Shown here: positions 1-36,771 of the stretch, piece after piece
Numbering within the stretch: the first letter of the stretch is position 1
Layout of the letters: each line of letters starts with the position of its first letter
From: Candidatus Marinacidobacterales bacterium
Lineage (GTDB): Bacteria; Acidobacteriota; Vicinamibacteria; Marinacidobacterales; DATDRI01
Assembly: GCA_965226495.1 (NCBI GenBank)
Contig: OZ245365.1
Span: 640,001-704,000, forward strand
Length of the DNA: 64,000 bases
Direction: 5' to 3'
The notes under the pieces: model-generated
The model's database searches: none
Told to the model about the DNA's origin: nothing
The model's input: the letters and a program-made list of their open reading frames with translations, nothing else
Made by a program: the position numbers and the translations under genes

Positions 1-2
1 TG

Positions 3-3000
3 GCAGGTGTTGCGGCTACGAGTGCCACGCATACGTCGGATTGCCCCTTCAGCTTCTCGAGGCCGATTACCATCGACTACACCAAGGTCGGCGTGGACAA
101 CACCGGCTCGATACCCAATTTCCCCTTCCTGGTCAGTCTCACGCGGGACTACCTCAAGAGCTCCGGCAACGGAGGGGACGTCCAAGATATCAACGGCTAC
201 GACATAACTTTTCGGGCCGCGGACATGATGACGCAGCTCGACCACGAGGTGGAGACCTACAATCCGGTAACGGGTGAGCTAGTGGCTTGGGTGAGGATCC
301 CGATTCTCTCGAAGTCCGCCGACACCGTCATTCACATGTTCTATGGCAGCGCCTGCGTGAGCTCATCCCAGGAGAATCCCGCCGGTCTGTGGGACGCATG
401 CTACAAGGGTGTCTGGCATCTCCCCGAGGAGCAGGCAGGGATCGGCAACCTCGATCTTTATGTCGACTCGACTTCCCCTTCTTACGACGGTGACGACTAT
501 GTCGTGGCAACCGGGCAAAACGGGCAAGTAAACGGTGGGCAAGAGTTCGATGGCGTGGGTGACTATATCGACACCGGTGCCGATGATCCACTGGATATCA
601 CAGGGCCGCTGACGATGTCTGCGTGGGTGTATCGTCGAAGCACTGTCAACACTCACCATATCGGATCAAAAAACACTGGGCCCCTTACCCCTTGGCAGTT
701 CGCCATGGTGTCGTCGACTAATGTCCTGAGACATTTTGTTGCGTCAGGCCCCGGTGGCCAAGGCGTTGGTTGGGAATCCCTCGATTCGAACGATCCGGTG
801 GCCCTTGATGAATGGCACCACGTGGCGGTCGTGAGAACTCTGACCGACGTCACGTTCTATATCGATGGTGTCCAAGATTCGGGCGGGTGGCAGGCAATGA
901 CAATCTTTCCGACCGCCAATGCTACTACTGCGAAGCTGGGCGCTCATGCGGATGTCACCGTGAGTTTCTTCGATGGGTTCATGGATGAGATCCGGATTTC
1001 CTGTGAGGCGCGCTCCGCGGACTGGCTCCGGACGTCTTACAACAACCAGAGCGGCCCCAATGGCTCCTTTTCAGTGGGCGAGTGTCCCGACTTGTCGGTC
1101 GCCGATGCCGGGAACACCATCACCGTCACCGCTCCCAACAGCTTCGAGATGACCTTCGACACCTCCGCGGGAGGTGCCATCAAGACTTTCTATGACCTGG
1201 CAGAGGGACCCTCAGGAGTGAACGATCTGGCAGGTGACTTGAATACCGTCCAGGGGCTCCACAACTCCGGGGTGAGATTTTCCAGCACCAATTACAACAC
1301 TTCGAAGAACAGTACTGCGAAACTGGACCTGCTCGAGGCTACTGCGACGCGAGTAAAGGTTCGCCAGGAAGCGTTTTACGAGTCCAACGCCGGCGTCATA
1401 CTCGCTGGCATCAAAGGCCGTGGTGACTACAGTATTTACCCGTCCGGAAGGCTTGCGCTTCGTTGGAACCGACGGACCACAACCGCGTGGACATACGACA
1501 CCGAATACCATGAGCTAGTCGCCCACTACATGACCACTCCGCCACTCGACTCTTGGGCTTCTTCCAGCGATACGGACGATACGCCAGATAACGCGGGAAC
1601 GGATACTTTTCTGCTGCATCAGAATGAGGTGGTCGGAGCGAGGACTGACTTTCTCGACATCATTTATCAGGACTGGATCTTGGGCAACGGCTACCTCGGT
1701 GACGCCGACATAGCCGGCTGGGGTACGAACGGCCCCAATGAACGTCTGAACGCCTATTGGGATGATTTGACAAGCACCCCGCTGCCTGCCAACCGAAGTG
1801 ATCTCTGGAACTTCCTGACTTACTTCAAGCCGGTGAATTTGGGTAGAACGCCAAACCCGTGGGAAGACACCGAAGTCAAGGGTCGTCGAGATGACTATCG
1901 GGTCACCGGCGCCTGTCCGACTTGTGGGCCCGACAACCTGGCGAGTCCCGCCGTTCCCATCGCGGGCGGCGGCTGGTTTCATCCAAGCGAGAATACTACC
2001 GGGCCGTCCGATTTCTTCAATGAGTCGGAAGCCGTTTACACGTTGGAATTCGACATGTCCGCGGGCCTTGAATTCGACATCGACGGTGGCACGGGAACAC
2101 CTCCTACACGGTACTCGCCGGTGCTGAAGATCCGCCACTGGCGTTCGTTCCAGGATCCGGAAACGGTGACGCTCGAGGGCACAACGTTAACCAACGACGT
2201 CGACTTCAAGGCGGATGTCAAGCCGATTGCCCGCGCACACTTTGCGGACGAACTCACCTGGTACTCGACGCTCCAGAGCGCGGCGGTCACTTCGACTCCC
2301 ACGGTGGGCACGACGACGGCTGTCTCTGGCGGGATCAGTTTCGTGGGTGCCAAGTACGGCAGCGGCGCGTCGATCGACGCAAACGGCGACACCATCACGT
2401 TCCCGGCGGCTCAGAACTTCAATGCGAGCGAGGGCACGGTGGAGTTCTGGTACCGGCCGAGCTACGAGTGCCAGCCGGCCCCGGGGACCTGCGACGGCGC
2501 GAGCCACGTATTCTGGCATATGCAGCAAGTCCCGACGGACTACTTCGCCTTCCGCAAGTCGGCCAGCAACGCGCTCGATTTCGAGACGCGCAACAATTCG
2601 AGCGGTCTCACCACGACCAAGACGGTTGCGCTGGCAGACTTCGGGTGGAGGGCCGAGGACTGGGTGCACCTGCGCGTGACCTGGGACAGCTCGGCCCCGG
2701 TGGCGAGCGACCGTCTCATGATCTACGTGAACGGCATGGCGCCCACGCAGTCGATCGCCGGCGGACCTTTCAACGGGGCTGGCCTAACAGTCGGCCCGAA
2801 CTACATCGGCACGACCTCGTCCGGGGGCAATCATGCTTCCGGCATCCTCGACGAGTTCCGCGTCTACAGCACGGCGAATGCGCCGACGCCACTCGCTCAC
2901 GGGGGGCTGACGTCGAGCGCAAACGAGTACTTGGCGAGCACAAGCCAGAACTTCCAGCTCGCGTTCGATGGGGTGGACGTGGACCGGCGAGGCGAGTACG

Positions 3001-6000
3001 CGTACTTTGGCGCGGACTCGCAGTTCCGTGGTCTGAACATAGGTCTGAGTGTAGTGGGAACGGGTGTGGGTGCCGGCGATTTGGTGTGGGAGTACTGGAA
3101 CGGAACGACGGGTGCCTGGGATGATCTGGAAGCGGTGTTGAACTTCACCGACGAGACGGACTCGCTGACGAAGTCGAACGGCACGGTGTACTGGGAAGAG
3201 GACCCTCCGAACTGGGCGGAGTACTCTGTTAACGGAAGCCCCGATCTCTACTACATACGGGCGCATCTCGTGAACGGGGCGAGCTACGGTACGCCGCCGA
3301 CTGAAGCTTTGATAAAAACCGACATTCTGTTGTTCCAGTACTGCAGCGATATTACCCAGGCCGCGCAGACTTTTAACTTCGCGGTACCGCTCGCGACAGC
3401 GGTGGAGCTGGTGTCGTTCGACGCTCCCCAAGACGCTCAGCCTCTCGATGGGGCCGTGGCTTTGGAGTGGACGACCGGCTCGGAGCTTGACAACCTCGGG
3501 TTCCATCTCTACCGAGCGGAATCGGAGGAAGGCCCGTTCACGCGGATCACCGCGAGCGTGATACCCGGACTCGGTTCTTCCCCGCAAGGAGCCACGTATA
3601 GCTATAGGGATTCCGGGCTCACCAACGGCGTGACCTACTACTACCAGCTGGAGGACATCGAGACCACAGGGAAGAAAGAGTTTAATGGCCCGGTATCGGC
3701 GACGCCCACAACAGAAGTTGTAGTGGAAGGGGACCCTGACGGCGAGGAGGGTTCGTCTGGAGCCGAGCTCGGCGAGCTGTCGTCTCGCATCACTTTTGGA
3801 GATCCATCTGCGAACGAGCTGAAGGTACGCCGCCGCGGTAAGAAGTGGATGGAGCTAACGCTCATCACCGAAGGCTTCTACGCGATCCCTCAAGAAGATG
3901 GCTCGGTACTGCTCGAGGTCCCGGGGTTCGAAGACTTCGGTGGTCCAGACTTGCCCGATGTCCCTGCCTACCGCACCTGGCAAGACGTCCTGGCGGGCCG
4001 GAATGTAACTCTAGTTTCGGTGAAGACTTTCGACGTCACCGAGTTTGCGAGCCTGCGCCCGAGCTCGTCCGAGCTGATTGTGGTGGCCAGCGGAGATGGA
4101 ACGGTCCAGACCAGACGTCGCCGCAAGAAACGCCGCAAGCCCCCGCACGTGTACTACCCAGAGAAGTGGGCCCAGTTGATGAGTGTGGGTTTCCAGGGAG
4201 CGGCGAAGAAGGCGCTGGTCGAGATGGCCCCGCTGCGTTGGGATGCGACGGCGGAGCGTCTGGTACTAGCTCGACGTGTAGTAGTTCGGATCTCGTTCAA
4301 GGGCAAGGACAAGGCAGAGCTGAAGCTAGGTAAGAGCCACCGAGAAGTAGGAAGCCACGCCAACCGGAGCGTCTACGCCCGGATAGCGGTGACGGGGCCT
4401 GGCCTCTATGGGGTGAGCTACGAGTCGGTATTCGGCCAAATAGGTAAGACGAGAAAGGCCATCAAGACCAGCTCTTTGAGGCTGAGCCGTCAGGGCGAGC
4501 CGGTGGCGTTTTTCGTGAGCCCGAACTCGAAGAAGTTCAAGAAGAAGTCGGTGCTGTACTTCCTGAGCGATGGTGCGGACTTGAACCCCTATGGCCATGA
4601 AGCGGTCTACGAGCTCGAAGCCAGCCAACAAGGACTCCACATGGAATCCCTGAACGGAGCTCCGGTGGGAGCCCCGACCACCTTCTACTGGAAGACGGTG
4701 GAGCGGGAAGAGAATCTGCTCTACCAGGCTGCCTTTGAGGGCGAAGAAGACATCTGGCAGTGGGATTGGCTGTTCGGCCCGATGACGAACGGCTACCCCT
4801 TCGAAGTCACGAACCTGTCGCCGGTGGCCGAAAACTCGAAACTGAGAGTGTGGCTCCACGGAGCGAGCGATTTCCCCGAAGATCCGGACCACCACGTCAG
4901 ACTCTACATAAACGGGATTCTCGTTAATGACACGTGGTGGGACGGCGAGACGCCTCACTTCGTCGAAGCGGAGCTGGGTCCTGGATTGCTCCTAGAGGGT
5001 GAGAACACTCTAGAAATAGAAGAAGTGGGGGACACGGAAGCTCAGTACTCGATGGTGATGCTGGACCGTTTCGAGGTGAGCTACCCATCGCAACTAATCG
5101 ACGAACTGGACGGAAGCTTCACCCAATCAGGGTTAGCCATCATCTCCGGCGGAGCAGGACACCTTTTCGACGTGACGGAGGCCCAACCGAAACGCTTGAG
5201 CGGAGTGCAAGCAACTCAAGACGGATTGAGCTTCGGTGCGGCGTCGGCCCATCGCTACCTATTGGCGAGTTCGGTGCTGACTCCAGAGGTAAGACCGGCG
5301 CAGTCGACGGGTCTGAAGAAGGCGTGGAGTCGAGCGGAGTACCTGGTCATCGGTCCAAGGGAGTTCCTTGATGCTGCGGAGCCTCTGCTGGCCCACCGGA
5401 GAAACGAGGGCTTGATCGCAGGAGCGATTGCGACGGAAGACATCTTCGATGAGTTTGGATATGGAGAGTCGACCCCGGAATCGATCAAGGACTTCCTGAG
5501 CTATGTGTACCACCACTGGAGTGAGCCGACCCTGCGGTACGTCGTCTTACTAGGAGATGGTACCTACGATTTCAAAGATTACCTAGCGACGGGCGTTGCG
5601 AGCTATGTCCCAGTGAAGATCGTGGAGACTCGCTACATGTGGACGGCGTCGGATCCCTGGTATGGCGCGATCAATGGAGATGACATCCTACCGGACGTCG
5701 CCATAGGGCGACTTCCAGCTGCATCGGTCGGCGAAGTGCAAGCGTTGGTGCAGAAGATCCTCGACTATGAGTCTGGAGAAGGGGACCCGGGGGCTCCGAT
5801 CGTTCTTATAACGGATAACCCGGACGTTGCAGGGAACTTCGACGCGGATGCTGAGGAGATAGCATCAACGTTGCTGACCGAACAAGGCGTCGAGAAGGTC
5901 TACCTGAGTCAGCTTGGACCCGCTGTCGCGCGCGGAGCCATCCTCAATGCTTTCGACGACGGTGCCTCGATCGTGAGTTACTTGGGTCATGGCGCAATCC

Positions 6001-6377
6001 ATTTGTGGGCTCAGGAAAACTTGCTCGACATCTGGCAAGTGGGTTCCCTGGCACCACAGTCGCAGCAACCGCTCTTATTCACGATGAACTGCCTGAATGG
6101 GTACTTCCACTTCCCGTATCACAACTCGCTTTCGGAAGAGCTCTTGAAGGCAGAAGGGAAAGGCGTTATCGCTGCCTTTTCGCCGACCGGGTTGAGTTTG
6201 AACAGTCCGGCACATCGTTTCCACAAGGCGCTTCTCCAACAAGTCGTGCACAGCGACCATGAGCGATTGGGAGACGCGATACTTGCCGGTCAAGGAGTTT
6301 ACGCGCACACTGGAGCCTTCCCCGAGCTTCTGAGCATCTATCATCTATTAGGTGATCCTGCCCTCAGGCTTCGCTAA
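3..6377 (+). CDS. Giant modular secreted protein 1 (5'-truncated by window): DUF2341 + LamG + unnamed domain X + LamG + domain Y + Ig/FN3-like + C25 propeptide + C25 cysteine peptidase
   Basis: Frame is open from position 3 (…SFSRPITIDYTKVG…NFPFLVSL, DUF2341-like start). LamG motifs WHHVAVV…FYIDG…GFMDEIRIS. C25 motifs EYLVIGP…EDIFDEFGYG, YVVLLGD, DVAIGRLP, SYLGHG (His 5988-5990), MNCLNG (Cys 6090-6092), LLGDPAL. Confidence 0.85.
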   Translation, partial: AGVAATSATHTSDCPFSFSRPITIDYTKVGVDNTGSIPNFPFLVSLTRDYLKSSGNGGDVQDINGYDITFRAADMMTQLDHEVETYNPVTGELVAWVRIPILSKSADTVIHMFYGSACVSSSQENPAGLWDACYKGVWHLPEEQAGIGNLDLYVDSTSPSYDGDDYVVATGQNGQVNGGQEFDGVGDYIDTGADDPLDITGPLTMSAWVYRRSTVNTHHIGSKNTGPLTPWQFAMVSSTNVLRHFVASGPGGQGVGWESLDSNDPVALDEWHHVAVVRTLTDVTFYIDGVQDSGGWQAMTIFPTANATTAKLGAHADVTVSFFDGFMDEIRISCEARSADWLRTSYNNQSGPNGSFSVGECPDLSVADAGNTITVTAPNSFEMTFDTSAGGAIKTFYDLAEGPSGVNDLAGDLNTVQGLHNSGVRFSSTNYNTSKNSTAKLDLLEATATRVKVRQEAFYESNAGVILAGIKGRGDYSIYPSGRLALRWNRRTTTAWTYDTEYHELVAHYMTTPPLDSWASSSDTDDTPDNAGTDTFLLHQNEVVGARTDFLDIIYQDWILGNGYLGDADIAGWGTNGPNERLNAYWDDLTSTPLPANRSDLWNFLTYFKPVNLGRTPNPWEDTEVKGRRDDYRVTGACPTCGPDNLASPAVPIAGGGWFHPSENTTGPSDFFNESEAVYTLEFDMSAGLEFDIDGGTGTPPTRYSPVLKIRHWRSFQDPETVTLEGTTLTNDVDFKADVKPIARAHFADELTWYSTLQSAAVTSTPTVGTTTAVSGGISFVGAKYGSGASIDANGDTITFPAAQNFNASEGTVEFWYRPSYECQPAPGTCDGASHVFWHMQQVPTDYFAFRKSASNALDFETRNNSSGLTTTKTVALADFGWRAEDWVHLRVTWDSSAPVASDRLMIYVNGMAPTQSIAGGPFNGAGLTVGPNYIGTTSSGGNHASGILDEFRVYSTANAPTPLAHGGLTSSANEYLASTSQNFQLAFDGVDVDRRGEYAYFGADSQFRGLNIGLSVVGTGVGAGDLVWEYWNGTTGAWDDLEAVLNFTDETDSLTKSNGTVYWEEDPPNWAEYSVNGSPDLYYIRAHLVNGASYGTPPTEALIKTDILLFQYCSDITQAAQTFNFAVPLATAVELVSFDAPQDAQPLDGAVALEWTTGSELDNLGFHLYRAESEEGPFTRITASVIPGLGSSPQGATYSYRDSGLTNGVTYYYQLEDIETTGKKEFNGPVSATPTTEVVVEGDPDGEEGSSGAELGELSSRITFGDPSANELKVRRRGKKWMELTLITEGFYAIPQEDGSVLLEVPGFEDFGGPDLPDVPAYRTWQDVLAGRNVTLVSVKTFDVTEFASLRPSSSELIVVASGDGTVQTRRRRKKRRKPPHVYYPEKWAQLMSVGFQGAAKKALVEMAPLRWDATAERLVLARRVVVRISFKGKDKAELKLGKSHREVGSHANRSVYARIAVTGPGLYGVSYESVFGQIGKTRKAIKTSSLRLSRQGEPVAFFVSPNSKKFKKKSVLYFLSDGADLNPYGHEAVYELEASQQGLHMESLNGAPVGAPTTFYWKTVEREENLLYQAAFEGEEDIWQWDWLFGPMTNGYPFEVTNLSPVAENSKLRVWLHGASDFPEDPDHHVRLYINGILVNDTWWDGETPHFVEAELGPGLLLEGENTLEIEEVGDTEAQYSMVMLDRFEVSYPSQLIDELDGSFTQSGLAIISGGAGHLFDVTEAQPKRLSGVQATQDGLSFGAASAHRYLLASSVLTPEVRPAQSTGLKKAWSRAEYLVIGPREFLDAAEPLLAHRRNEGLIAGAIATEDIFDEFGYGESTPESIKDFLSYVYHHWSEPTLRYVVLLGDGTYDFKDYLATGVASYVPVKIVETRYMWTASDPWYGAINGDDILPDVAIGRLPAASVGEVQALVQKILDYESGEGDPGAPIVLITDNPDVAGNFDADAEEIASTLLTEQGVEKVYLSQLGPAVARGAILNAFDDGASIVSYLGHGAIHLWAQENLLDIWQVGSLAPQSQQPLLFTMNCLNGYFHFPYHNSLSEELLKAEGKGVIAAFSPTGLSLNSPAHRFHKALLQQVVHSDHERLGDAILAGQGVYAHTGAFPELLSIYHLLGDPALRLR
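2255..3195 (+). repeat. Intragenic repeat (LamG/domain Y block) shared with gene 2 at ~13358-14295
   Basis: Direct comparison at offset ~11100; 2874-3195 is nearly identical to 13974-14295. Confidence 0.85.
4362..5770 (+). repeat. ~1.4-kb near-identical block shared with gene 2 (15472-16880)
   Basis: Offset 11110; few differences, clustered around 5448-5475. Confidence 0.9.
5477..6097 (+). repeat. ~620-bp near-identical block shared with gene 3b (26881-27501)
   Basis: Offset 21404; includes the GEGDPGAP…QGVEKVYLSQ segment, where gene 2 differs. Confidence 0.9.
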
Positions 6378-6386
6378 CCTTCCCGT

Positions 6387-6404
6387 TGTAGTCGAAACCC
6401 CTCA
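6387..6404. promoter_or_regulatory. Putative enhancer palindrome TGTAGTCGAAACCCCTCA
   Basis: Resembles the YGWRGGG-N4-CCCYWCR motif at four other promoters; 97 bp upstream of the sigma54 box. Confidence 0.45.
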
Positions 6405-6483
6405 CTATCCAATACGCCCCTTCAGCTAACGCTGTAAGTGGTTGACGATTAAACGATTGCAAAGAGGCCCAACTGCGAGGGTT

Positions 6484-6499
6484 CGGCACGACCATTGCA
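6484..6499 (+). promoter_or_regulatory. sigma54 promoter CGGCACGACCATTGCA for giant gene 2
   Basis: GG(6485)…GC(6497) at exact -24/-12 spacing; IHF-like TAAGTGGTTGA at 6435-6445. Confidence 0.7.
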
Positions 6500-6543
6500 T
6501 TACTCCAACCGACCAGAGGGAGAAGTCCGCCCTTGTAGGGTCA

Positions 6544-9500
6544 ATGCCGCGAATCAATATGAAAACGACCGCTCGGATGCCAGGGATGCCACGCCTCGTG
6601 ATGATCTCCGTTCTCGCCGTCGTTTTCGCCACTGTGACGACCGAGGCAGAGTCCCCACACGCCGGTGACCTGGTCAGCTCGTCAGGGGAGCGGGACCTTA
6701 CCCGCGGTGTACTCGCCTTCAATGCGAACAAATCGGTCTACTTGCCGACCGAGACCGCGTACCTTCAAATGGGTGTCGTTGATGAAGACGGGCGTACGAT
6801 TTGCGACGCCGAGCTCGACCTCACAGTTACGACACCCACTGGCGAGGTTGATACCCTCTCCACCGAGAACGGTCGGATTCGGAGAAATCCGGAATGCGGT
6901 CCCGACAACGTGATCGAAGCTCCGGACTACTTTGCCTACTACGCGACGCGGACTACCGGTACGTATGACGTTGCCCTAACGAGCCGCACTTTGGATGGCG
7001 TCAAGGAAACTCGAAATAGTTTCGAAGTTCGGGAAGACAGGCCCTTTGACATCGAGCGCATAGGCCCATCCCGAGTCTATCCTGTGGCCGACTACAGGAT
7101 GCAACTTCGAGTCAAGGCCAACCAGGGGTACCAGGGCACACTCCGTGAGTACGTTCCAAGCGGTTTCGTCATTCGGGACCATCGTCTCAGGGTCAAGAGT
7201 CACGGAAGGGCGCAATTCGCACCGATCGATCGACCCTTGTCGAACCACGAAACCAGCGATGGCCGGATGGCTCTAACGTGGAAGGACATCGCCCTAACCC
7301 CTGGTGACGAACTGGAGGTCACGTACACGTTCAATACACCCAACACGTCTCCAGAATTCTACCTCTTGGGTGGAGTCGAGTTGGCCGATTTCGTCGAGGC
7401 GCGGTCGTGGCAGATTGCGGTGGATTCCACCGCGGTTTTCGATACATTCACCGAGACAGTCGATACGCCCATCACCGCTCACACACCCGATACGGGTTCC
7501 GGGTGGACGACAGTGTTCGACGATACGGGGGGTACTGAAGCCGAGATATCTGAAACGACGGATATCTTTCAAGCAAGTCAGATTCAGAACAATGTGGGGC
7601 AAGCTTACACCGCGCAGCCCACACCCACCACTGTCAACCAAAACGTCAGCATAACGCTAAAAGTCTTGGACACCACGTCGTCGGACAGGTCGGTGGGAAT
7701 ATTCGCCCGGAGAGCGGACAATAGCAACTTCTATCACGTACAGATCTTACCGAACGCTCACACTAACCCGAGCATTACCCTCTACAAGTTCGAGGGCGGC
7801 GTTCCTACGATTCTAGGAACCTTCGATGCGATCCTCGCGGTGGGGACGGTTATCAAGCTGGAAGTAAGAGACGTAACCAAGAAAGTCTTCGTGGACGGTG
7901 TGGAACGGATCAGTTCCTCAGACAACTCTCTGACTGCGGCCGGCACTTGGGGAGTCTATTTCGGAAATTTTAATGGCGCGGGAATTGGAGGCGATATACG
8001 GGGGACCTGGGACCTTGACGATTTTCTCGCCGAGGACGGCAATTTCCCTGACCCGCAGTCCTGCGCCCGCATAACGACAATTGGTGCGGGCGACGAACAG
8101 GCCTTCGACATGATCGTCCAGCCCGACGGCAGGTTCATTTTGGTGGGTTACAGCAACAACGGCAGCGACGAGGATATCGCCCTAGCCCGTTACCACCCGG
8201 ACGGGCGACTAGACCTCAGCTTCGACGGCGATGGCATCCGGACCGACGACATTGGAACGAGTAACGAGCGGGCTCGCGCGGTGGCTCTCCAGTCGGATGG
8301 GAAGATTGTGGTCGCCGGTTACACGGACGACCCCGGTAACGAGGATTGGTTCGTGGCGCGGTACGATACCGACGGAAGTCTTGACCCGAGCTTCGGCGGC
8401 GGGATCGTAACCACTGCTATTAGCGGCCTCCAGGACCGACCCGCAGCCTTGGCTATCCAGCCGGATGGAAAAATTGTCGTCTCCGGCTATGGTGTTGCTG
8501 GAGGCGACGACGTGGCAGTGGTTCGCTATAACACCGACGGGAGCGTCGATCCGACCTTTAGCGGTGGAATCGTGACCACTGACGTCGCGGTCACAGACCG
8601 GGCCAATGATGTCAAGATTCAATCCGACGGAAAGATCGTCGTGGGCGGAACTACCACGATTGCTGGTGACCGGGCCTTCCTAGTCATCCGCTACAACAGC
8701 GACGGCAGCCCGGATAATTCTTTCGGCGCGAGCGGAGTCGTAACCACCCAGGTCCCGCTTAGCGACGAATTCGGCGAGGGGCTCGATATCCAGCCTGACG
8801 GAAAGATTGTGCTTGGCGGCTTCACCGACAACTTGACGGGCGACTTCATGGTCGCGCGTTATGACAGCAATGGCACATTGGACTCGACGTTCGGCACCGG
8901 TGGCATCGTGACGACCGACATCCTCGGTGGAGACGACGACGCGGACGATCTCCTGCTGCAACCCGACGGCAAGATCTTGGTGGCGGGGTACGCTCACAAC
9001 GGACTGAATCAAGACTACGGAATCGTCCGGTACAACTCCGATGGCAGTTTGGATACTTCGTTCGGCACCGGCGGCAAAGTCACGACACCGATTGGCAGTC
9101 TCGACGACAACTCCGAAGCGTCGGCCCTCCTGCCGGACGGCAGCTTCATCGTGGCGGGTTTCAGCGCTAACGGCAGCGATTCCGATTTCTCCTGGGCCCG
9201 GCACAATCCGGATGGGAGTCTCGCCACCGGGTGTGGTGTGGTCAACTACCGCTCGATCGGAACCGCAGGAAACTATACTGACGGCACCGGCGTCGCCGCG
9301 ACGAGCGGTTCGACTGTCGTTACGGGTATTGCCGCCGCAACTTGGAAGACCTCAAATCGCGGTCGTGGCGATCTGATCACGATCGACGGTGTGCCTTACA
9401 CGGTCCTCTCGGTCGATTCCGAGACCCAGCTCACCCTGACCTCGCCCTACACCGAAGTGACTGGTTCGGGCAAGGCTTATACCATCGCCCGCAAGTTCAC

Positions 9501-17490: not shown

Positions 17491-17508
17491 TCGGGTTAAA
17501 TTAAAAGT

Positions 17509-17526
17509 CGAGGGGAAATCCCCACC
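17509..17526. promoter_or_regulatory. Putative enhancer palindrome CGAGGGGAAATCCCCACC
   Basis: GGGG-N4-CCCC core; 100 bp upstream of the sigma54 box. Confidence 0.5.
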
Positions 17527-17608
17527 AAGCTCGGCGATTCACCCTCAGTCGTACCCCCCAGAAGCTCCCTGCTTTCAGTGATATAGGTGAGTTTCCACCA
17601 TCGACTTC

Positions 17609-17624
17609 GGGCATCGTTCTTGCA
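17609..17624 (+). promoter_or_regulatory. sigma54 promoter GGGCATCGTTCTTGCA for giant gene 3
   Basis: GG(17610)…GC(17622) spacing is correct. Confidence 0.6.
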
Positions 17625-17642
17625 AGATCGGTGGGAATTCCT

Positions 17643-23600: not shown

Positions 23601-24950
23601 GGCGTGACGCTCGCGAACGACGCCGACTACCGCGCCGACGTGAAGCCTCTGTCGCGAGTCTACGCGGGGCAGGATCCGATTTGGTACTCGACGCTTCAGG
23701 AAACGTCCTTCGTATCAACGCCCGATATCGGGAGCAGCGGTACCATCCAAGGAACAATCAGCTACGTACCTGCCCTGTACGGGCAGGGTGCCCGGTTTGA
23801 TGGGGTGAGCGACGTGATCACGTTCGGCAGCACCGGGATGGATGTCACCCGAGGCACCGTGGAGTTTTGGGTCCAGCCAGAGTTCGATCACACCGATGGG
23901 GTGCGACATACCTTCTGGTTCAACTCGGGTTCCGGGGGAGATTTCTTCCTCCTCGAAAAAACGGCGGCGAACAACCTGGAGTTCGGCGTCTTCAATGGTA
24001 CGTCGACTCTGGTGAGAATCCTGTCCACCGACTTTAGCTGGAGAAACGGGGACTGGGTGCACATCCGTGCGATCTGGACAGAGGCCGGCATCGTAGGTGA
24101 ACAACTACGACTCTTCGTCAACGGATCGGAGCTCACGCATACCGACGTGGGTATGTACAACTCCACCGGTATGACCGTCGGGAGCAATTTCATAGGGAAC
24201 ATTCAGGCAGGAACCTCGCCCGCCATAGCCGTAATCGACGAGTTCGTCCTCTATGAGGGGGACCACCAGCCCGCGCTGCGCGCGTACGCCGGTCTCACGA
24301 GTCACCCGAAAGAGTTCATGGCGAGCCCGACGAACAATCTCACCTTCGCATTGTGGCCTGCGGACGCGAACGGGCGCACTGACTACTTTTACTTCGGTTC
24401 GGATAGCCAGTTTCGCGGCCTCAATATCGCGCTGGAAACAGCGGGCGTCGGCACGCCACTCCTCAAATGGGAGTACTGGGATGGCGTAAACGGCGCTTGG
24501 GCCGACCTGGATACCCTAGGCACCTTTGTCGACGAGACTAATTCGTTGACCGAACTACATGGGACCGTTTACTGGGAAGAAGACCCACCGAATTGGATGC
24601 CGTACGCCGTGACGGACGGTCCGGAGCTCTACTACGTCCGGTTGCATGCACTAATCGGCTCGAATTACACGACCATGCCGAAAGAGGCACTGATCAAGAC
24701 GGACATTCTGTTACTCCAGTTGTGCGGAGACATCACGGCGGCGGCACAGACGTTCAACATTCCTGTGCCTTTGGCGACAGCGGTGGAGCTCGTGTCGTTC
24801 GATGCTCACGGCAAAGACGGTGCGGTCGAGCTCGAATGGAAGACAGGTTCGGAGCTCAACAATCTCGGCTTCCATCTGTATAGGTCGACAACCGCAGACG
24901 GTCTTTATGAACGGATCACAGGTAACGTGAACGGATCACAGGTAACGTGA
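17643..24950 (+). CDS. Giant modular secreted protein 3, N-terminal part: signal peptide, delta-60 repeats, inserted domain, two beta-helix modules, Ig-like, X, LamG, Y, start of Ig/FN3-like domain; ends at a frameshift
   Basis: MTNCSSKSRRRGLSTSGLLALTLIWNLFAAATSDA is signal-like; colinear with gene 2; stops at the 20-bp duplication. Confidence 0.8.
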   Translation: MTNCSSKSRRRGLSTSGLLALTLIWNLFAAATSDAQSCAKLTQIGTGVDQAFDMAVQPDGRFILAGHTTGVDEDIALVRYHPDGRLDLSFDADGIRIDNIGVGSNERARAVALQSDGKIVVAGFTDDAGNDDWFVARYDTDGSLDPSFSGGIVTTAITGVQDRAAAIAIQADGKIVVVGFGGIGDEDVVVVRYNTDGSVDPSFSGGIVSTDAGSGDRVNDVKIQADGKIVVGGNTNLAGDKAFLAVRYNGDGSLDTSFDVDGVVTTQISANADNGEALDIYPDGRIVLAGFYFDGLDEDFAVVRYNSNGSLDTSFDTDGIVITDFNGNDDNADDLLLQPDGKILVAGYAHNGIDQDYGVVRYNSDGSLDTSFGSGGKVTTPIGGLDDNSEASALLPDGSFIVAGFSDNGTDFDFSWTRYNPDGSVAMSCGVVNYRSIGTAGNYTDGTGVTATNGSVIVTGAATTWRSSNRGRGDRITINGVPYTVLSVDSETQLTLTAPFNGATGSGKSYTISRKFSTLQGWEDCISFGTVPAANVALSDGWFTGLGAYTVPAGTDRVLVFATSYEDNVSTYPIISDVTFGGVSMTRAVQAQVVSVGTANNSEIWYLKDTDIPAGSNSFVVVYDVSPDEAELHGYALFTKVDQVSPILDFDSATTTSGDVVGPTPAFNVAQGGMAVASAASGKDGNFSDGSWGAGWVEGADQQDGIPAMTMGTANTSSAYGAAGTDTATATYVSGANRQVIVAASLNPAPQSCEGVFSASYIADDRSEVGIAYNDSIVPTDADFTAAVSMVGSVTDAGHDITLTADDGNRHYGLQTQGVLIDNGSSGADTISIDDDFVTVEWLEVFKGGGSSDGVSVQNQSASNQIVIRNMLIHDTGSSGISLLGTTPIVDVYNNFVFQTGSRGIAILGNPTATIRVLNNTVYSNPNQGIEAAFAGVYPNVLLRNNISHTSGLDDFKVAGFNPASSHNLASDMTGTTHSNPPGTGQDNVPLTGGGGVNFVDPFTVNMEDFHIQPVTSVAWNVGADLSGVFTTDIDNGTRPSGPQWDIGADEEGAAASSLSLANHPSGQTTNKFSGASPVTDTLFQFRLTPSGTVNVDTVRVGFTTLTGVLNGDVTNGELWEDTNGNGTWDDSGGGDTLLEGSVTPSGGVLTFNNNFPPGAGGTNYFVRATVSNLVAGNSTVFSLDAAGIDEVEASVGESGSITNALHSQSMSPSINYRSIGTNSSVLYQAGNASVLAGSNAVTFGGGASLPVPTAIGAVGQGDKLVIGSETFFILSRDSNTQVTIQEIAVSNHAGEAYTITRAYNTLQDWEDDCVAVPGCLPTSSGGRGGDLVTDDRYEIGVAYNDVASGPFIDDDVDGRVVRILGSTVDATRHRDLTVAAGQRHNGTAGTGAVVDGQTTTAFPIQVSENDTRVEWFEVKNGYDVGDGGSSSLYVGNGAVSVTNVVLEYMLVYDYLAGNFNAGARPNTNLGGNDSFTVRNSIFYNGDYGVRSGNQAGDSVTAENCTTYNVLKDGYQQAGGGVLSVTNSIAMASGTGSDFSAGVTGDYNLDEDGTAPGANSVHGATIANQFVSIALGSEDLHLKVGADAIDVADPTPLSFCCDIDGGPRIGNWDIGADEFGAGGAGGCGPDLQVTEGSGTFTVTAPGSFEMRFNEATGGGIDLFYDLAEDPGRTIDLAGGTNEVKTLFHVNMFDGATFFTTSTNDSGAQVDVLEVTATRVRVRQNTFLQDQGGPTILGGVKGFGDYSIYPSGKMAIKWNLTSTTAVAYQSQGMELGVHHSSAGGNPLNNWTAHRELGTTFGPGLSFGDDDFVMMKNDSVGVRTDFLNVLYQDWTTPTHVEDADYSDSVQNGAFEYAFVNWRAVGAAGLPADSDQIWNFLSFFKPTNLVDRLDAAVTGRRDDYRGPDDLATPVAPTAGSGWFHPSENTASPSDFFNESEGVYTLDFDMTSGLNFDIDGGLGAPPVRHSPFFKIRQWRSLQDPATVTLEGVTLANDADYRADVKPLSRVYAGQDPIWYSTLQETSFVSTPDIGSSGTIQGTISYVPALYGQGARFDGVSDVITFGSTGMDVTRGTVEFWVQPEFDHTDGVRHTFWFNSGSGGDFFLLEKTAANNLEFGVFNGTSTLVRILSTDFSWRNGDWVHIRAIWTEAGIVGEQLRLFVNGSELTHTDVGMYNSTGMTVGSNFIGNIQAGTSPAIAVIDEFVLYEGDHQPALRAYAGLTSHPKEFMASPTNNLTFALWPADANGRTDYFYFGSDSQFRGLNIALETAGVGTPLLKWEYWDGVNGAWADLDTLGTFVDETNSLTELHGTVYWEEDPPNWMPYAVTDGPELYYVRLHALIGSNYTTMPKEALIKTDILLLQLCGDITAAAQTFNIPVPLATAVELVSFDAHGKDGAVELEWKTGSELNNLGFHLYRSTTADGLYERITGNVNGSQVT
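24911..24950 (+). repeat. 20-bp perfect tandem duplication (ACGGATCACAGGTAACGTGA x2) that frameshifts gene 3
   Basis: Seen directly; removing one copy gives …YERITGNVIPGLGSSPQG…, matching the paralogs. Confidence 0.95.
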
Positions 24951-27781
24951 TCCCGGGGCTCGGCTCGTCGCCGCAGGGTGCTACGTATAGCTACCGTGAT
25001 TCCGGTCTCACCAATGGCCTGACGTACTACTACAAACTGGAGGACATCGAGACTGCCGGCGAGAAAGAATTTCACGGCCCCGTGTCGGCGACCCCGACCG
25101 CGGAAGGTGGCTCCGAGGGTGAAGAGGAAACGAGTGGCGGAGTCTCTTCCGGCGAGGAAGATCTCGGCGAGCTAACTTCGCGCATCACGTACGGAGATCC
25201 GTCGTCGAACGAGCTGAAGGTGCGCCGCCGTGGGAAGAAGTGGATGGAGCTGGAGCTCATCACGCAAGGTTTTTATGCCATTCCTCAGGAGGATGGCTCG
25301 GTGCTGCTCGAGGTCCCAGGCTTCGAGGACTTCGGTGGTTCGGACCTGCCGGACGTGCCGGTCTATCGCACTTGGCAGGATGTCCTGGCCGGCCGCAACG
25401 TGACGCTCGATTCTGTGAGTACCGAAGGAGTGGCGGAGTTCGCAAGCCTTCGGCCGAGCTCTTCAGAGCTGATCGTCGTTGCTTCGGGAGACGGAACGGT
25501 GCAGGCGGGCCGTCGACGTAAGAAACGCCGCAAGCCGCCTCACGTTTACTACCCCGAGTCCTGGGCGCAGTTGATGAGTGTCGGCTTCCAAGGAGCCGCC
25601 AAGAAGGCCATGGTCGAGATGGCCCCACTTCGGTGGGATGCCACGGCCGAGCGTCTGGTCCTCGCGCGTCGCCTGGTGGTGCGTATTTCGTTCAAGGGTA
25701 AAGACAAGGCCGAGCTGAAGCTCGGAAAGAGCCATCGAGAAGTCGGGAGCCACGCCAACCGGAGCGTCTACGCTCGGATCGCGGTGACCGAGCCGGGTCT
25801 GTACGAGGTGAGCTACGAATCGGTATTCGGCCAATTCGGTAAGAAGAGAAAAGCCATCAAGACGAGCTCCTTGAGACTGAGCCGTCAGGGCGAACCGGTG
25901 GCGTTTTTCGTGAGCTCGAACGGTAAGAAGTTCAAGAAGAAGTCGAAGTTGTACTTCCTGAGCGAGGGAGCTTCCTTGAACCCGTACGGTCACGAAGCGG
26001 TCTATGAGCTCGAAGCCAGCCAACAAGGTCTCCAGATGGAACCCCTGAACGGAAGCCCGGTGGGAGCTCCGACCAGTTTCTACTGGAAGACGGTGAAGCG
26101 GGAAGAGAACCTGCTTTATCAAGCTGCATTCGAAGGCGAAGAGGACATCTGGCAATGGGATTGGCTCTTCGGCCCGATGACCAACAGCTACCCGTTCGAA
26201 GTCACCAATCTGTCTCCAGTACCGGAGAGCTCGAAACTTAGAGTCTGGCTGCACGGAGCGAGCGATTTCCCTGAGGATCCGGACCACCACGTCCGGCTCT
26301 ACATCAATGGGATTCTCATTGATGAAACCTGGTGGGATGGCGAGACCCCGCACTTCGTAGAAGCACAGCTTGGCCCAGGTCCTCTCCTCGAGGGTGAGAA
26401 CAGTCTAGAGATAGAGGAAGTAGGGGACACCGAAGCCGAGTACTCGATGGTGATGCTGGATCGTTTCGAGGTGAGCTACCCGGCGCAGCTAGTGGCGGAA
26501 GACGGGGAGCTGAGGGGCAGCTTCAGCGAATCGGGAGTGGCGACCATCACCGGCCCAGCGGCCGAGATATTCGACGTGACGGAGGCGGCACCGAGACGAC
26601 TCACGGGAGTCAGTGTCGGCGACAGTATTACAAGCTTCCGTGCGGAGTCTGGTCGTCGTTATCTATCGACTAGTTCGGTGAAGACTCCGGAAGTGAGACC
26701 CGCACCGTCTGCAGGACTCAAGAAGGCGTGGAGCCGTGCGGAGTACTTGGTGATCGGTCCGAGAGCGTTCCTCGCGGCTGCGGAGCCTCTCCTGGATCAC
26801 CGGAGAAACGAAGGTTTGATAACGGGAGCGATAGCAACGGAAGACATCTTCGACGAGTTCGGGTATGGAGAAGCGACACCGGAATCGATCAAGGACTTCC
26901 TGAGCTATGTGTACCACCACTGGAGTGAGCCGACCCTGCGGTACGTCGTGTTACTAGGAGATGGTACCTACGATTTCAAAGATTACCTAGCGACGGGCGT
27001 TGCGAGCTATGTCCCAGTGAAGATCGTGGAGACTCGCTACATGTGGACGGCGTCGGATCCCTGGTATGGCGCGATCAATGGAGATGACATCCTACCGGAC
27101 GTCGCCATAGGGCGACTTCCAGCTGCATCGGTCGGCGAAGTGCAAGCGTTGGTGCAGAAGATCCTCGACTATGAGTCTGGAGAAGGGGACCCGGGGGCTC
27201 CGATCGTTCTTATAACGGATAACCCGGACGTTGCAGGGAACTTCGACGCGGATGCTGAGGAGATAGCATCAACGTTGCTGACCGAACAAGGCGTCGAGAA
27301 GGTCTACCTGAGTCAGCTTGGACCCGCTGTCGCGCGCGGAGCCATCCTCAATGCTTTCGACGACGGTGCCTCGATCGTGAGTTACTTGGGTCATGGCGCA
27401 ATCCATTTGTGGGCTCAGGAAAACTTGCTCGACATCTGGCAAGTGGGTTCCCTGGCACCACAGTCGCAGCAACCGCTCTTATTCACGATGAACTGCCTGA
27501 ACGGCTACTTCCACTTCCCGTACCACAACTCGCTTTCCGAGGAACTCCTTAAAGCGGAAGGGAAGGGTGTCATCGCCGCGTTCTCGCCGACGGGGCTAAG
27601 TCTGAACAGCCCGGCACATCGATTCCACAAGGCGCTTCTCCAACAGGTCGTGCACAGCGACCATGAGCGACTGGGCGATGCGATACTCTCCGGCCAAACG
27701 GTCTACGCCCACACCGGAGCTTTCCCCGAGCTTCTGAGCATCTACCACCTTCTCGGTGATCCAGCCTTGACGCTCCGATAG
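24947..27781 (+). CDS. Giant protein 3, C-terminal part (gene 3b): rest of Ig/FN3-like domain + C25 propeptide + C25 peptidase
   Basis: Colinear with the C-terminal ~940 aa of genes 1 and 2; YLGHG and MNCLNG intact; no signal peptide of its own. Confidence 0.8.
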   Translation: MIPGLGSSPQGATYSYRDSGLTNGLTYYYKLEDIETAGEKEFHGPVSATPTAEGGSEGEEETSGGVSSGEEDLGELTSRITYGDPSSNELKVRRRGKKWMELELITQGFYAIPQEDGSVLLEVPGFEDFGGSDLPDVPVYRTWQDVLAGRNVTLDSVSTEGVAEFASLRPSSSELIVVASGDGTVQAGRRRKKRRKPPHVYYPESWAQLMSVGFQGAAKKAMVEMAPLRWDATAERLVLARRLVVRISFKGKDKAELKLGKSHREVGSHANRSVYARIAVTEPGLYEVSYESVFGQFGKKRKAIKTSSLRLSRQGEPVAFFVSSNGKKFKKKSKLYFLSEGASLNPYGHEAVYELEASQQGLQMEPLNGSPVGAPTSFYWKTVKREENLLYQAAFEGEEDIWQWDWLFGPMTNSYPFEVTNLSPVPESSKLRVWLHGASDFPEDPDHHVRLYINGILIDETWWDGETPHFVEAQLGPGPLLEGENSLEIEEVGDTEAEYSMVMLDRFEVSYPAQLVAEDGELRGSFSESGVATITGPAAEIFDVTEAAPRRLTGVSVGDSITSFRAESGRRYLSTSSVKTPEVRPAPSAGLKKAWSRAEYLVIGPRAFLAAAEPLLDHRRNEGLITGAIATEDIFDEFGYGEATPESIKDFLSYVYHHWSEPTLRYVVLLGDGTYDFKDYLATGVASYVPVKIVETRYMWTASDPWYGAINGDDILPDVAIGRLPAASVGEVQALVQKILDYESGEGDPGAPIVLITDNPDVAGNFDADAEEIASTLLTEQGVEKVYLSQLGPAVARGAILNAFDDGASIVSYLGHGAIHLWAQENLLDIWQVGSLAPQSQQPLLFTMNCLNGYFHFPYHNSLSEELLKAEGKGVIAAFSPTGLSLNSPAHRFHKALLQQVVHSDHERLGDAILSGQTVYAHTGAFPELLSIYHLLGDPALTLR

Positions 27782-27803
27782 CCGCGGGAAAACCCTCCGG
27801 AAC

Positions 27804-27821
27804 CGTAGGGAACTCCCCTCT
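27804..27821. promoter_or_regulatory. Putative enhancer palindrome CGTAGGGAACTCCCCTCT
   Basis: 97 bp upstream of the sigma54 box; IHF-like TAAACCATTGCAT at 27852. Confidence 0.5.
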
Positions 27822-27900
27822 CCTGGGGGGTCCTCAACCGATATAAACCTCTAAACCATTGCATTTAAAACTATTTCGCCATGGGCCCGGCCGCCCCTCC

Positions 27901-27916
27901 CGGCACGGGTCTTGCT
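27901..27916 (+). promoter_or_regulatory. sigma54 promoter CGGCACGGGTCTTGCT for giant gene 4
   Basis: GG(27902)…GC(27914); close to consensus TGGCACGNNNNTTGCW. Confidence 0.7.
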
Positions 27917-27929
27917 CTTCCATTGCCCG

Positions 27930-30290
27930 ATGGACCCGAGAACTGTGCCCACACGCGCATTCATAAGGAAGCCTCTATGCCAGTGGCGCGACCTTGCGAG
28001 TCGAGCGGCGTCCCTCGCCGTAGTCATTGGGCTTTCTTTGTTTGCGGTGGGGGTAGAAGCTGAGGTCATCTACTACTCTGTAGGGACGGACAACACGTCG
28101 CTTTATTCAGATACGGCTTCGGCCGCGAGCGGAACGCTTACCCTGAATAGCCCGGCTGCGGACCGCATCGGGGTGGGTGACGAGATACGGGAAGGGTTGA
28201 ATCGTTACTACATCACAGGGCGTAACTCAACGACCGTGTTTACGATTCAAAACTCCGCGGCCAACGGTGGAACGCCCGGGGATACCAACATTAGCTTCGC
28301 GTCAACCGCGATTACGATTTTCCGGGCCTTCAACACGCTGTCTGACGCCACCCGGAACTCCGACGATGGCACCCACCTGGGCGGCAACGATCTTGTCACC
28401 AACGACATCCAACTCAACTGGCCTTGCTACAACGACGCTGCGGCGGACCCTTCCGCAAGGGTGCAGGTCCGTGAGTCGGGGTCGGAAACGTGGACCACCG
28501 ACGCCACCCGCTACATCAGGATCTACACGCCCACCACCACGAACGAGGTCGGAGTCTCCCAGAGACACGATGGCCGGGCCGGCACGGGGTATCGGATCGC
28601 TCCCACAGGTCCCGCCGGTGTGAATTTCTTCAACTTCATCTACGTCGGCACGGGAAACGTGCGCATCGAGGGGCTCGAGATCGACGGCTCGGGCCTCACC
28701 AACGCAGGGAACATCCGGGGCATCATGGTCAACGAGGACGTCAACCCCATGGCCGACGTCCGGATCTCCCACAACCTCATTCACGACATCACCAACACCA
28801 CCGACTACGACGGGGCGGGCCAGGCCGACCTCATGGGAATGCGGATCGAGGACGTCGACAACGCCACGGTCTGGAACAACATCGTCTACAACCTGACCAA
28901 CGGCTCCCTCCACGCCAACAGCGACACCTCGGGCATCCAGAGCGCGGGCGCCAACGGGAGGACGCACTACGTATACAACAACACGGTCTACAACCTCGAT
29001 GGTGGCCAGCGGCCGGTGCGGGGGATCTTTGACTTCAACATCACGATCAACGCCAGAAACAACTACGTCGGCCTGATGACGAGCACCACGACCAACGAGT
29101 GTTATAACGGCCCTTTCCTCAACGCCGCGGGCGACAACTACAACGTCTCCTCGGACGGGACCGCGTCCGGCACCGGAAGCCAGACCGGCCAGTCGAATTA
29201 CGCCGCCTATTTTGCCGATGTTACGGGCGGAAGCGAGAATCTACACTTGCAGAGCGACTCCGACACCCTGTGGGGCTCGTTCGGCGCCGATCTCGATAGC
29301 GATCCTGACCTTCCCGTCACCGACGATATTGATGGGGAGGCTCGGGATGCGGTGACCCCCGATATCGGCGCGGACGAGTTCTCCGCGACAGAGCTCCACC
29401 GCTCGGTAGGCATCACCCCGACCGACCTCAATACGAGTGCCCGCACGGTGCAGATCTCGGGTAACACCGCCGTCTTTTCGGGTCCGATGCCGGACAACGT
29501 GGGTGTGGGCGACGTGCTCCAGTACCAAGTGGCCTCCACGTTCTACCTAGCTTTTATCCATGGCCGGAGCTCCAACACGGTCTACACGGTCGGAACATCG
29601 GCGGGTGGCACGGCCCAGGCCGCCGCGGCAGGCACCGCCGTCGGCGTCTACCGCGCCTATACGTCTCTCAATAATTGGGAGATCCAGGACGAGAACAACA
29701 CGTTAGATGATTCCGTCGAAAATTTCGACACGTCGAAGGATCTTCTCGGTGATCGGACCTTGATGCTGGTAGCCTGCTACGGCGACGGTACGGATACCGC
29801 TCCGGTTTCCATGCAGAACTTCAACACGGGTCCGGATAACTACATCCGCATTTACACTCCTGTGGGACCGTCAGAAGTCGGCGCGAGTCAGCGGCATAAC
29901 GGGATGTGGGATCCGAGCGCCTACCACATGATCGTTGGCAACGCCACGGGGATTCTCGTTCAGGACAACTACGTCGATATCGATGGTCTGCAAGTTTACG
30001 TCAACAGCGTCAACGCTCCAGATCAAGCGGCTATCTATTATTTCAATATCACCGGAGCCGGAGAGGGTAGGGTATCCAACAACATTCTCCGAGGCATCAA
30101 CATCGCCATAACCAATCACGCTGGAACCGGGTTTTTCAACGTTGGGACGGTGGACCTCTACGTAAACAACAACGTCATTTATGACTTCCGTGGAGATATG
30201 TGGAATAACGGTATCTTCGCGGACGACGCCGAATCCACTCTCTACGCCTACAACAATACGATTCACAACTGTCAGGAAGGTCTTTCGTGA
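27930..30290 (+). pseudogene. Fourth modular secreted beta-helix protein, apparently 3'-truncated
   Basis: Signal-like LAVVIGLSLFAVGVEA; two RAY/F.TL…YIRIYTP…EVG.SQRH.G + beta-helix modules; the second helix stops mid-coil (YNNTIHNCQEGLS*) without the DIGADE cap. Start ATG 27930 or GTG 27945. Confidence 0.6.
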
Positions 30291-33792: not shown

Positions 33793-33832
33793 TGGCCTGT
33801 GAACAGTGAACAGAGAACCGAGAACCGACTAC
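33791..33832. repeat. Degenerate heptamer tandem repeat between convergent genes
   Basis: agtggcc-tgtgaac-agtgaac-agagaac-cgagaac-cgactac. Confidence 0.6.
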
Positions 33833-36744: not shown

Positions 36745-36771
36745 TCTATGGGGTGCCCACCAAGGCAAACT

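Follow-up and report, generated by a model that had tools for sequence, protein, structure and literature searches.

Why would a bacterium place a cysteine peptidase at the very end of one giant protein after another? This question is raised by the stretch of DNA analysed here, bases 640,001-704,000 of the 6.34-Mb single-contig genome of a Candidatus Marinacidobacterales bacterium (64,000 nucleotides, hereafter the window; positions are those of the window unless given as genome positions). It carries part of an array of at least seven giant genes, all on one strand and spanning 85,180 bp of the genome. Six of them (A1 to A6) terminate in a cysteine peptidase resembling PorU, and the seventh (A7) is cut short in this assembly. 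PorU is described, in excerpts of PMC4560394 and PMC5445135, as a sortase working inside the Bacteroidota type IX secretion system (T9SS). The locus proteins are members of peptidase family C25 that most likely work like PorU, and we lean towards the view that each of them carries its own sorting peptidase, which would cut off the constant C-terminal part of the chain at a predicted site.

A constant C-terminal chassis with a PorU-like body

The last 990 aa are common to all six complete array genes and 82-93% identical among the five that were compared, and thus constitute a constant chassis. Its structural model (pLDDT 88, pTM 0.85) comprises four parts, namely an FN3-like domain, a linker that is acidic and flexible, the fold of a gingipain prodomain and a PorU-like body. 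In gene 1 of the window (A4, + strand) the chassis starts with the FN3-like (Ig) domain (3384-3716), a candidate substrate tag, followed by the gingipain-type prodomain fold, which has a basic loop and matches the Kgp prodomain (3780-4307). It ends, together with the protein, in the PorU-like body (4323-6374), formed by N-terminal beta domains, among them a jelly roll like that of carbohydrate-binding modules (CBM), and by the C25 catalytic domain.

PorU was the top Foldseek match of the chassis (E 8e-28), and model residues 321-1004 could be superimposed onto residues 24-788 of PorU (6ZA2) with a Z of 21.4 and a root-mean-square deviation (rmsd) of 5.6 over 560 aligned residues. PorU is therefore a better comparison than the RgpA/Kgp gingipains in reversed order, which a preliminary description of this DNA had put forward. 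Taken separately, the catalytic domain resembled RgpB (Z 39.6, rmsd 2.1, 318 aligned), the prodomain resembled that of Kgp (5MUN; Z 15.2, rmsd 3.3, 169 aligned; prodomain profile E 0.002), and model residues 443-576 formed a CBM36/35-like jelly roll (Z about 10, rmsd 2.8, about 110 aligned). The retention of the non-catalytic domains of PorU, which gingipains lack, counts in favour of a sorting peptidase.

Membership in family C25 is indicated by full-length matches to PF01364 over its gathering score and by a His/Cys dyad on a gingipain fold. The profile matched the C25 genes along model positions 1-374 with 245-275 bits (cut-off 23). Within the window, the first, second and fourth open reading frames (ORFs) each contained a full-length Peptidase_C25 at 245-250 bits, in agreement with the preliminary description, which had reported three consecutive genes ending in C25 with an intact dyad. 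The catalytic residues are His876 and Cys910 (codons 5988-5990 and 6090-6092 in gene 1), which align with the RgpB dyad and were invariant in 79 of 79 homologues. Asp818 and Asp821 were also invariant, in a loop that resembles PorU and not RgpB. The peptidase constitutes the end of the protein, since 80 of 81 complete C25 domains (79 loci) finished 15 aa or less from the stop. As had been noticed earlier, no domain and no match to a T9SS C-terminal domain (CTD) profile follow it, and no anchor was found elsewhere in the array proteins. Assignment to true PorU was rejected (187-215 of 420 bits, no Arg722, no CTD), as was assignment to true gingipains, whose architecture differs (here the protease comes last and a CTD is missing).

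A candidate cleavage site and a proposed mechanism

Likeness between the variable passengers that precede the chassis stops at the passenger/FN3 border. In gene 1, the Thr at this border (3396-3398, + strand), followed by Ala-Val, is the putative cleavage site. Among 70 aligned rows with residues at these positions, Val was present in all 70, Thr in 69 and Ala in 59, and an overlapping set of loci gave Thr in 64, Val in 64 and Ala in 57 of 65 rows. The border Thr was also kept in seven distant fused forms. Excerpts of the literature place PorU cleavage between X and (G/S/A)(V/L/I) (PMC4560394) or between T/E/D/N and G/A/S (PMC10202324), and describe the specificity of PorU as low (PMC5445135); the Thr-Ala-Val border thus fits the PorU consensus.

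According to the mechanism that we propose, the chain would be exported by Sec and then cross the outer membrane, secretin systems being candidates for handling chains of 300-600 kDa, and until activation the peptidase would be held in a latent state by the prodomain. The FN3-like domain would dock on the PorU-like body, as the T9SS CTD does on PorU, and the chain would be cut on the C-terminal side of the conserved border Thr, either in cis or by the peptidase of a neighbouring molecule. The acyl-enzyme formed with the passenger could then be resolved by water, leading to release, or by an amine of a surface glycan, leading to anchoring. These two outcomes are about equally open. Anchoring is favoured by the likeness to PorU, by the lack of any other anchor and by the glycan genes found at two of the three C25 loci of the host, whereas release is favoured by the Gly that replaces PorU Arg722 in 78 of 79 homologues, by the prodomain and by the absence of conserved glycan neighbours at 79 loci. 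Fusion of tag and enzyme would create a portable 3-kb cassette, with passengers swapped behind it by recombination, which would explain both the multi-copy family and the local array.

Split forms in other Acidobacteriota

The FN3 profile matched 144 of 251 Acidobacteriota genomes, although the weak matches are possibly ordinary FN3 domains. Among the best FN3 loci of 29 other genomes, 7 were fused to a PorU-like body, 11 ended 20 aa or less beyond the FN3 domain, 10 had a tail of 49-145 aa, and there was one other. Ten genomes were searched for C25, most of which have just 1-3 C25 genes, and in six of them an FN3 gene lay within 7 kb of a C25 gene. The split layout, seen in seven genomes, consists of one or two FN3-ended exported proteins encoded upstream, on the same strand, of an FN3-less PorU-like gene; an eighth is divergent. 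In G191, for example, the substrate is encoded at C1:1070.3-1071.9 kb and the enzyme at C1:1073.4-1076.9 kb. Genes for an HprK-related kinase, NTP_transf_5 and PqqD/radical SAM neighbour the split operons and recur at the remote C25 locus of the host (genome 5490 kb). Fused forms outside the order Marinacidobacterales had no detectable prodomain. One lineage has tag and enzyme joined in a single chain and others have them as neighbouring genes, from which, as is usual for such pairs, we infer that they work together.

In three genomes a further split type was observed, in which the PorU-like gene is followed by a small exported FN3-only protein without the first strand. The substrates of the split operons of G191 and G259 carry at their C-terminus what we take, by eye, to be a dockerin-like end, and the last domain of the enzymes of G170, G182 and G134 matches part of CglD; a tethering of enzyme and substrate through these ends is possible. 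As for a stand-alone FN3-ended substrate in the host, the one lipoprotein-like ORF retrieved (21.5 bits) was too weak and was rejected as support.

Alternative explanations for the chassis

Several observations weigh against a PorU-like, self-contained sorting peptidase. The PorU profile (NF033707) gave 187-215 bits, below its membership cut-off of 420. The conserved Arg722 of PorU, which lies 32 residues beyond the Cys, is proposed as a sortase hallmark in excerpts of PMC4560394; its column was Gly in 78 and Ser in 1 of the 79 homologues. The prodomain is a feature of degradative gingipains and not of PorU. Since the FN3 profile also matched ordinary multi-FN3 proteins (77,379 at E<=0.001), the FN3-like domain may be a plain spacer. 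At the border, Leu was found instead of Thr in the split substrates of six genomes, the remote 5490-kb gene of the host has Asn-His, and the Val/Leu there may be structural only. No conserved glycan or transport gene and no partner translocon were found beside 79 fused loci from 31 genomes, where, by eye, the recurring neighbours were only other passengers, insertion sequence (IS) elements and Ser/Thr kinases. Finally, one of the ten genomes searched for C25 (G297) gave no match despite having an FN3-ended protein, and FN3/C25 adjacency was not seen in three more.

Some of these observations would be accounted for if the C25 domain were an ordinary degradative protease at the tip of a giant adhesive protein, like RgpA/Kgp in reversed order, with passengers binding substrate or surfaces and self-cleavage only removing the prodomain. 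The Kgp/RgpB-like prodomain fold and the missing PorU Arg would be expected, and the Z of the catalytic domain to RgpB (39.6) indeed exceeds that of the whole body to PorU (21.4). Moreover, the candidate S1 column, which one pairwise alignment, locally unsure, pairs with the acidic pocket residue of RgpB, was Glu or Asp in 63 of 79 homologues (Glu 50, Asp 13, Val 10); that residue presumably governs Arg/Lys specificity. Nevertheless, we consider a degradative role rather unlikely, given that the N-terminal domains of PorU have been retained, that a chassis 82-93% identical stands behind unrelated passengers, that in split operons the FN3 end is accompanied by an enzyme encoded on its own and that fused forms outside the order have no detectable prodomain.

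Less probable still is that the chassis serves mainly as an export, docking or surface-assembly module, the protein staying whole on the surface via its PorU-like body, with the CBM-like domain binding glycan and the peptidase acting on other partners or rarely. The jelly roll at model residues 443-576, the lack of an anchor elsewhere and the fact that PorU itself remains uncut (excerpts of PMC10202324) agree with such a module, but the invariant dyad and the conserved border residues argue for a selected cut, and one enzyme per passenger would be redundant.

Distribution of the chassis and searches for T9SS markers

The chassis was found in 27 of the 61 genomes searched (host included), often in many copies. 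The host family was positive throughout (7 of 7 genomes), a sister family in 15 of 19 genomes and a third, small-genome family in none of 28. Loci carrying a name (best 80 of 537) were assigned to Ca. Marinacidobacterales, Vicinamibacteria or Acidobacteriota. Among the 120 homologues listed, two were annotated as 'C25 family cysteine peptidase', and the passengers are diverse, with LamG, beta-helix, DUF5122, FG-GAP and SBBP by Pfam accession. The earlier suggestion of polymorphic passengers in a host outside Bacteroidota was supported. Among the matches listed, seven relatives having 3-14 copies presented same-strand runs of 1-3, which indicates that tandem order is not required and that seven in a row is unusual. 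In a quick tree, from which the frameshifted genes of a second host cluster were left out, the array C25 domains formed one clade (SH-aLRT 90) inside a 73-row clade (SH-aLRT 100). This single clade and the exact repeats of up to 899 bp in the array fit local duplication and conversion. Genomes G099 and G084, from another Acidobacteriota family, contained 25 and 15 PF01364 matches, a separate C25 expansion.

The preliminary description had called for a check of T9SS in the host. The CTD profile TIGR04183 had no match in the host genome (94.8% complete) versus 4 in a Bacteroidota control plasmid, and two relatives gave weak partial matches. None of the array proteins matched TIGR04183 or PF18962, the control of the PF18962 search being silent. 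SprA was not found in 61 genomes, nor GldM and GldN in four, in searches with silent controls. A near full-length match to the PorV/PorQ family (58-59 bits, cut-off 90) was detected at genome 3517 kb, 2.8 Mb from the array, between genes that by eye are kdsB-like and type IV pilus-like, and no PorV2 over the cut-off was found in the host. A hydrophobic N-terminal stretch, read as a Sec signal peptide from hydropathy and by eye, was present in 10 of 10 C25 genes/array proteins. The host has several secretins, all below the GspD cut-off, so that export by a type II secretion system is a guess.

From all this a broader proposal can be formulated, which we regard as a tentative possibility: an undescribed, T9SS-independent Gram-negative sorting system in Acidobacteriota, in which a PorU-like transpeptidase would recognise an FN3-like C-terminal tag and link exported proteins to a surface glycan. 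Several classes would have this system in the form of split operons, whereas in Vicinamibacteria tag and enzyme would make up one self-sorting cassette, spread to 10 or more genes per genome, by which mosaic adhesins of 3000-6000 aa would anchor themselves. In that case, many metagenomic 'gingipain' genes counted as protein-degrading would instead be sorting enzymes.

Organisation of the array and other host loci

The array starts 55 kb upstream of the window, where three extra genes (genome 585111-633961) encode A1 (4122 + 1857 aa, with a frameshift between), A2 (4031 aa) and A3 (6188 aa, stop to stop). The tandem of three genes plus a truncated fourth described previously is real and larger, comprising seven genes. 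On the + strand of the window, the ORFs run from <1 to 6377, 6442-17490, 17631-24950, 24947-27781 and 27912-30290. Counted between stops, gene 1 (A4, 1-6377) measures 3306 aa and has its start about 3.5 kb upstream of the window, which extends the more than 2100 aa given for it before; its product consists of a signal peptide, DUF7483, DUF2341/LamG repeats, an X-LamG-Y block and the chassis. The size of about 3650 aa proposed for gene 2 (A5, 6442-17490) was correct (about 3650-3680 aa; 3686 stop to stop). This protein contains a signal peptide, a delta-60/DUF5122 propeller, a 150-aa sandwich flanked by two beta-helix modules, X-LamG-Y and the chassis (FN3 14488-14808, C25 16438-17487). Gene 3 (A6, 17631-27781; C25 26732-27778) attains the expected size, 3376 aa, only without a 20-bp duplication that splits it into two ORFs as assembled, and encodes a signal peptide, a delta-60 propeller, two beta-helix modules, X-LamG-Y and the chassis. 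Gene 4 (A7, 27912-30280) encodes a signal peptide and two beta-helix modules, one complete and the other cut. All four genes are on the + strand.

Three further C25 genes are located elsewhere in the host genome, a pair at 223-247 kb and a single gene at 5490 kb. The former belong to a second cluster (genome 222.8-247.4 kb, minus strand) of two chassis genes whose C25 part is frameshifted, adjoined by a Wzc-like gene. The latter encodes a divergent member of 2630 aa with DUF11 repeats, FN3 and a PorU-like body, without prodomain, and its neighbours are Wzc, NTP_transf_5, HprK-related kinase, radical SAM/SPASM and O-antigen ligase genes. Thus, a Wzc-like gene adjoins two of the three host C25 loci, and O-antigen ligase is also present at one of them.

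Toxin-antitoxin modules were observed directly 3' of partial copies of the C25 gene 3' end: MNT+HEPN, HepT-like and YoeB+YefM modules inside the array (genome 633.9-636.3 kb), and Phd+ParE/RelE-like genes at a lone C25 3'-end fragment 750 kb from the array (genome 1387.5-1388.4 kb). The 3' end of the C25 gene may be a recombination or insertion site. Other genes of the window, on the minus strand, encode a PilY1-like VWA/propeller protein (37274-40633), with a look-alike at genome 4399 kb, and two Ser/Thr kinases near an AAA/HEAT gene (33829-36768, DUF4388-kinase-TPR; 40962-42827, kinase-PEGA-TonB_C). Unrelated giant ORFs of 3596, 6012 and 4032 aa lie at genome 3108.7-3137.6 kb and 4435.5-4447.6 kb.

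Passengers are mosaics of shared modules

As first described, the passengers differ and are built from shared modules, and sharing between proteins is mosaic. A module of 400-440 aa is present in 8 copies in A3, about 7 in A1, 2 each in A2, A5, A6 and A7, and none in A4. It was modelled as a right-handed beta-helix (AF2 pLDDT 87.6), which agrees with the beta-helix modules ascribed to the fourth gene. In a wide VIA search it matched pectin-lyase-like folds (Z about 20, rmsd 3.1-4.8, about 270 aligned), headed by a glycoside hydrolase (Z 20.2) and a rhamnogalacturonan lyase (Z 20.1). Because many rows tie, these matches indicate the fold only; Foldseek gave no match for the module at E<=0.001. 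Further modules are the delta-60 propellers of A5 and A6, DUF2341/LamG, DUF7483 and unnamed units of 150-390 aa.

The X-LamG-Y block (999-3386 in gene 1, + strand) had been included in a constant X-LamG-Y-Ig-propeptide-C25 chassis. The FN3/Ig, prodomain and C25 parts of this definition hold. The block itself is confined to window genes 1-3 (A4-A6), three of the seven in the array, and the three C25 genes elsewhere in the genome lack it. It was therefore rejected as constant chassis and belongs to the passengers.

Probable assembly defects and reality of the array

Two lesions in the window look like defects of this assembly or strain. The first is an exact 20-bp tandem duplication (24910-24949, + strand), which shifts the frame inside the FN3 domain of gene 3 and splits it into ORFs of 2439 and 944 aa. 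In public contigs of four runs, from four studies, the duplication was left out at full depth (4/4 runs). The second is the junction 30280/30281, which runs A7 into the middle of an AAA/HEAT gene (ORF 30181-33792) and removes the 5' part of that gene, a part that the AAA gene of a relative possesses. Among the contig pieces listed (best 32 of 387; one run is possibly the source sample), right-hand contigs began to match at 30281 after 2.6-9.7 kb of other sequence in 4/4 runs, and left-hand contigs stopped matching at 30280 and continued for 1.9-2.1 kb in 3/4 runs. At least 9.7 kb are thus missing relative to the public contigs, through a misjoin or a strain deletion. Since contigs of four studies show neither the split of gene 3 nor the truncation of gene 4, A7 is probably longer and whole in nature, and the earlier claim of a truncated fourth gene probably does not hold for the natural gene, its cut being absent from 4/4 runs. 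A search of metagenome contigs for the missing part of gene 4 with one exact pattern gave 0 matches. Gene 3 as a pseudogene was rejected, as independent contigs show an intact frame without the duplication, and so was gene 4 as a natural silent cassette, as public contigs continue past 30280.

Independent contigs bridged genes 2 and 3 (A5-A6) in 2 runs and genes 3 and 4 (A6-A7) in 3 runs, which indicates that the tandem order is real for the window part and upholds the position that the copies are not artefactual. Half or more of the locus words were present in 18 runs; no RNA data set carrying them was present among the runs listed. Misassembly or decay of a repeat could also be suspected behind the array, given the frameshifts (gene 3, upstream A1 and the two second-cluster genes), the misjoin at 30280, the exact repeats of up to 899 bp and a same-genus genome in which the corresponding flanks enclose just a remnant of 100 aa and an IS. 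This idea is very improbable and largely refuted for the window part, in view of those bridging contigs, the intact gene 3 in them, the 18 runs and copies that are no more than 82-93% identical. That genome, G002 (C3:1512-1532 kb), has the same flanking genes, but where the whole array would stand it carries an IS-like ORF and the passenger remnant (75% to A2). The AAA/HEAT gene is cut at its 5' end there too, and either a real deletion or a misassembly (9% contamination) may be involved. In run X2, a 1-base insertion and a 6-base deletion were seen in gene 3 at 18355 and 19820, attributable to strain variation or contig error.

Novelty and implications

No description of this architecture was found in the literature covered, whose scope did not extend to supplements, most subscription papers, the PorU structure paper or MEROPS/InterPro notes; the main text of 10.1101/2023.11.21.568195 mentions neither gingipain, sortase nor Acidobacteria. 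The locus contributes a fused form that is self-contained and has expanded throughout its lineage, the prediction of a specific cut and, within the same phylum, a split form as its counterpart.

If our interpretation is correct, the PorU-type peptidase step would be a portable module older or wider than T9SS, a new C-terminal tag would be defined in a very common soil and sediment phylum, and a one-chain construct would become available for in-tube tests of cleavage and transpeptidation. Caution would also be advised in equating C25 counts in metagenomes with extracellular proteolysis. Should the enzyme only hydrolyse, a new self-processing adhesin architecture would remain, of narrower interest.

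Comparison with known systems

Built-in proteases that free passenger domains are known from the MARTX cysteine protease domain and from autotransporters. These involve other peptidase families and export routes, whereas the proteins described here have a Sec signal, no barrel and no RTX repeats. PorU2 (NF052324) is matched partially, over about positions 30-765 of its 879, but with 93-188 bits against a cut-off of 450, and no PorV2 over its cut-off accompanies it. The FN3-like domain recalls the T9SS CTD (TIGR04183/PF18962) as a beta-sandwich of about 100 aa that ends many exported proteins of the split form, but it matches no CTD profile, is of FN3 type by sequence and is internal in the fused form; its nearest Pfam-named Atlas cluster, an Ig+CTD protein at 0.82, is a lead only. 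With the gingipains RgpA, RgpB and Kgp the array proteins share the prodomain fold, the catalytic fold and dyad, and the giant multidomain adhesin-protease layout. Here, however, the protease comes last, about 330 aa of PorU-type domains stand between prodomain and catalytic domain, and no Ig, adhesin or CTD follows the protease. Compared with PorU (6ZA2; NF033707), the enzyme is fused behind its presumed substrate, exists in many copies per genome, has a gingipain prodomain in front, lacks the C-terminal 370 aa of PorU including the CTD as well as Arg722, attains half of the cut-off score and belongs to a host without T9SS CTD match. Nonetheless, it shares with PorU the N-terminal beta domains and C25 in the same order, the His/Cys dyad, a loop of the Asp-Asn-x-Asp type and a candidate cleavage site that fits the PorU consensus.

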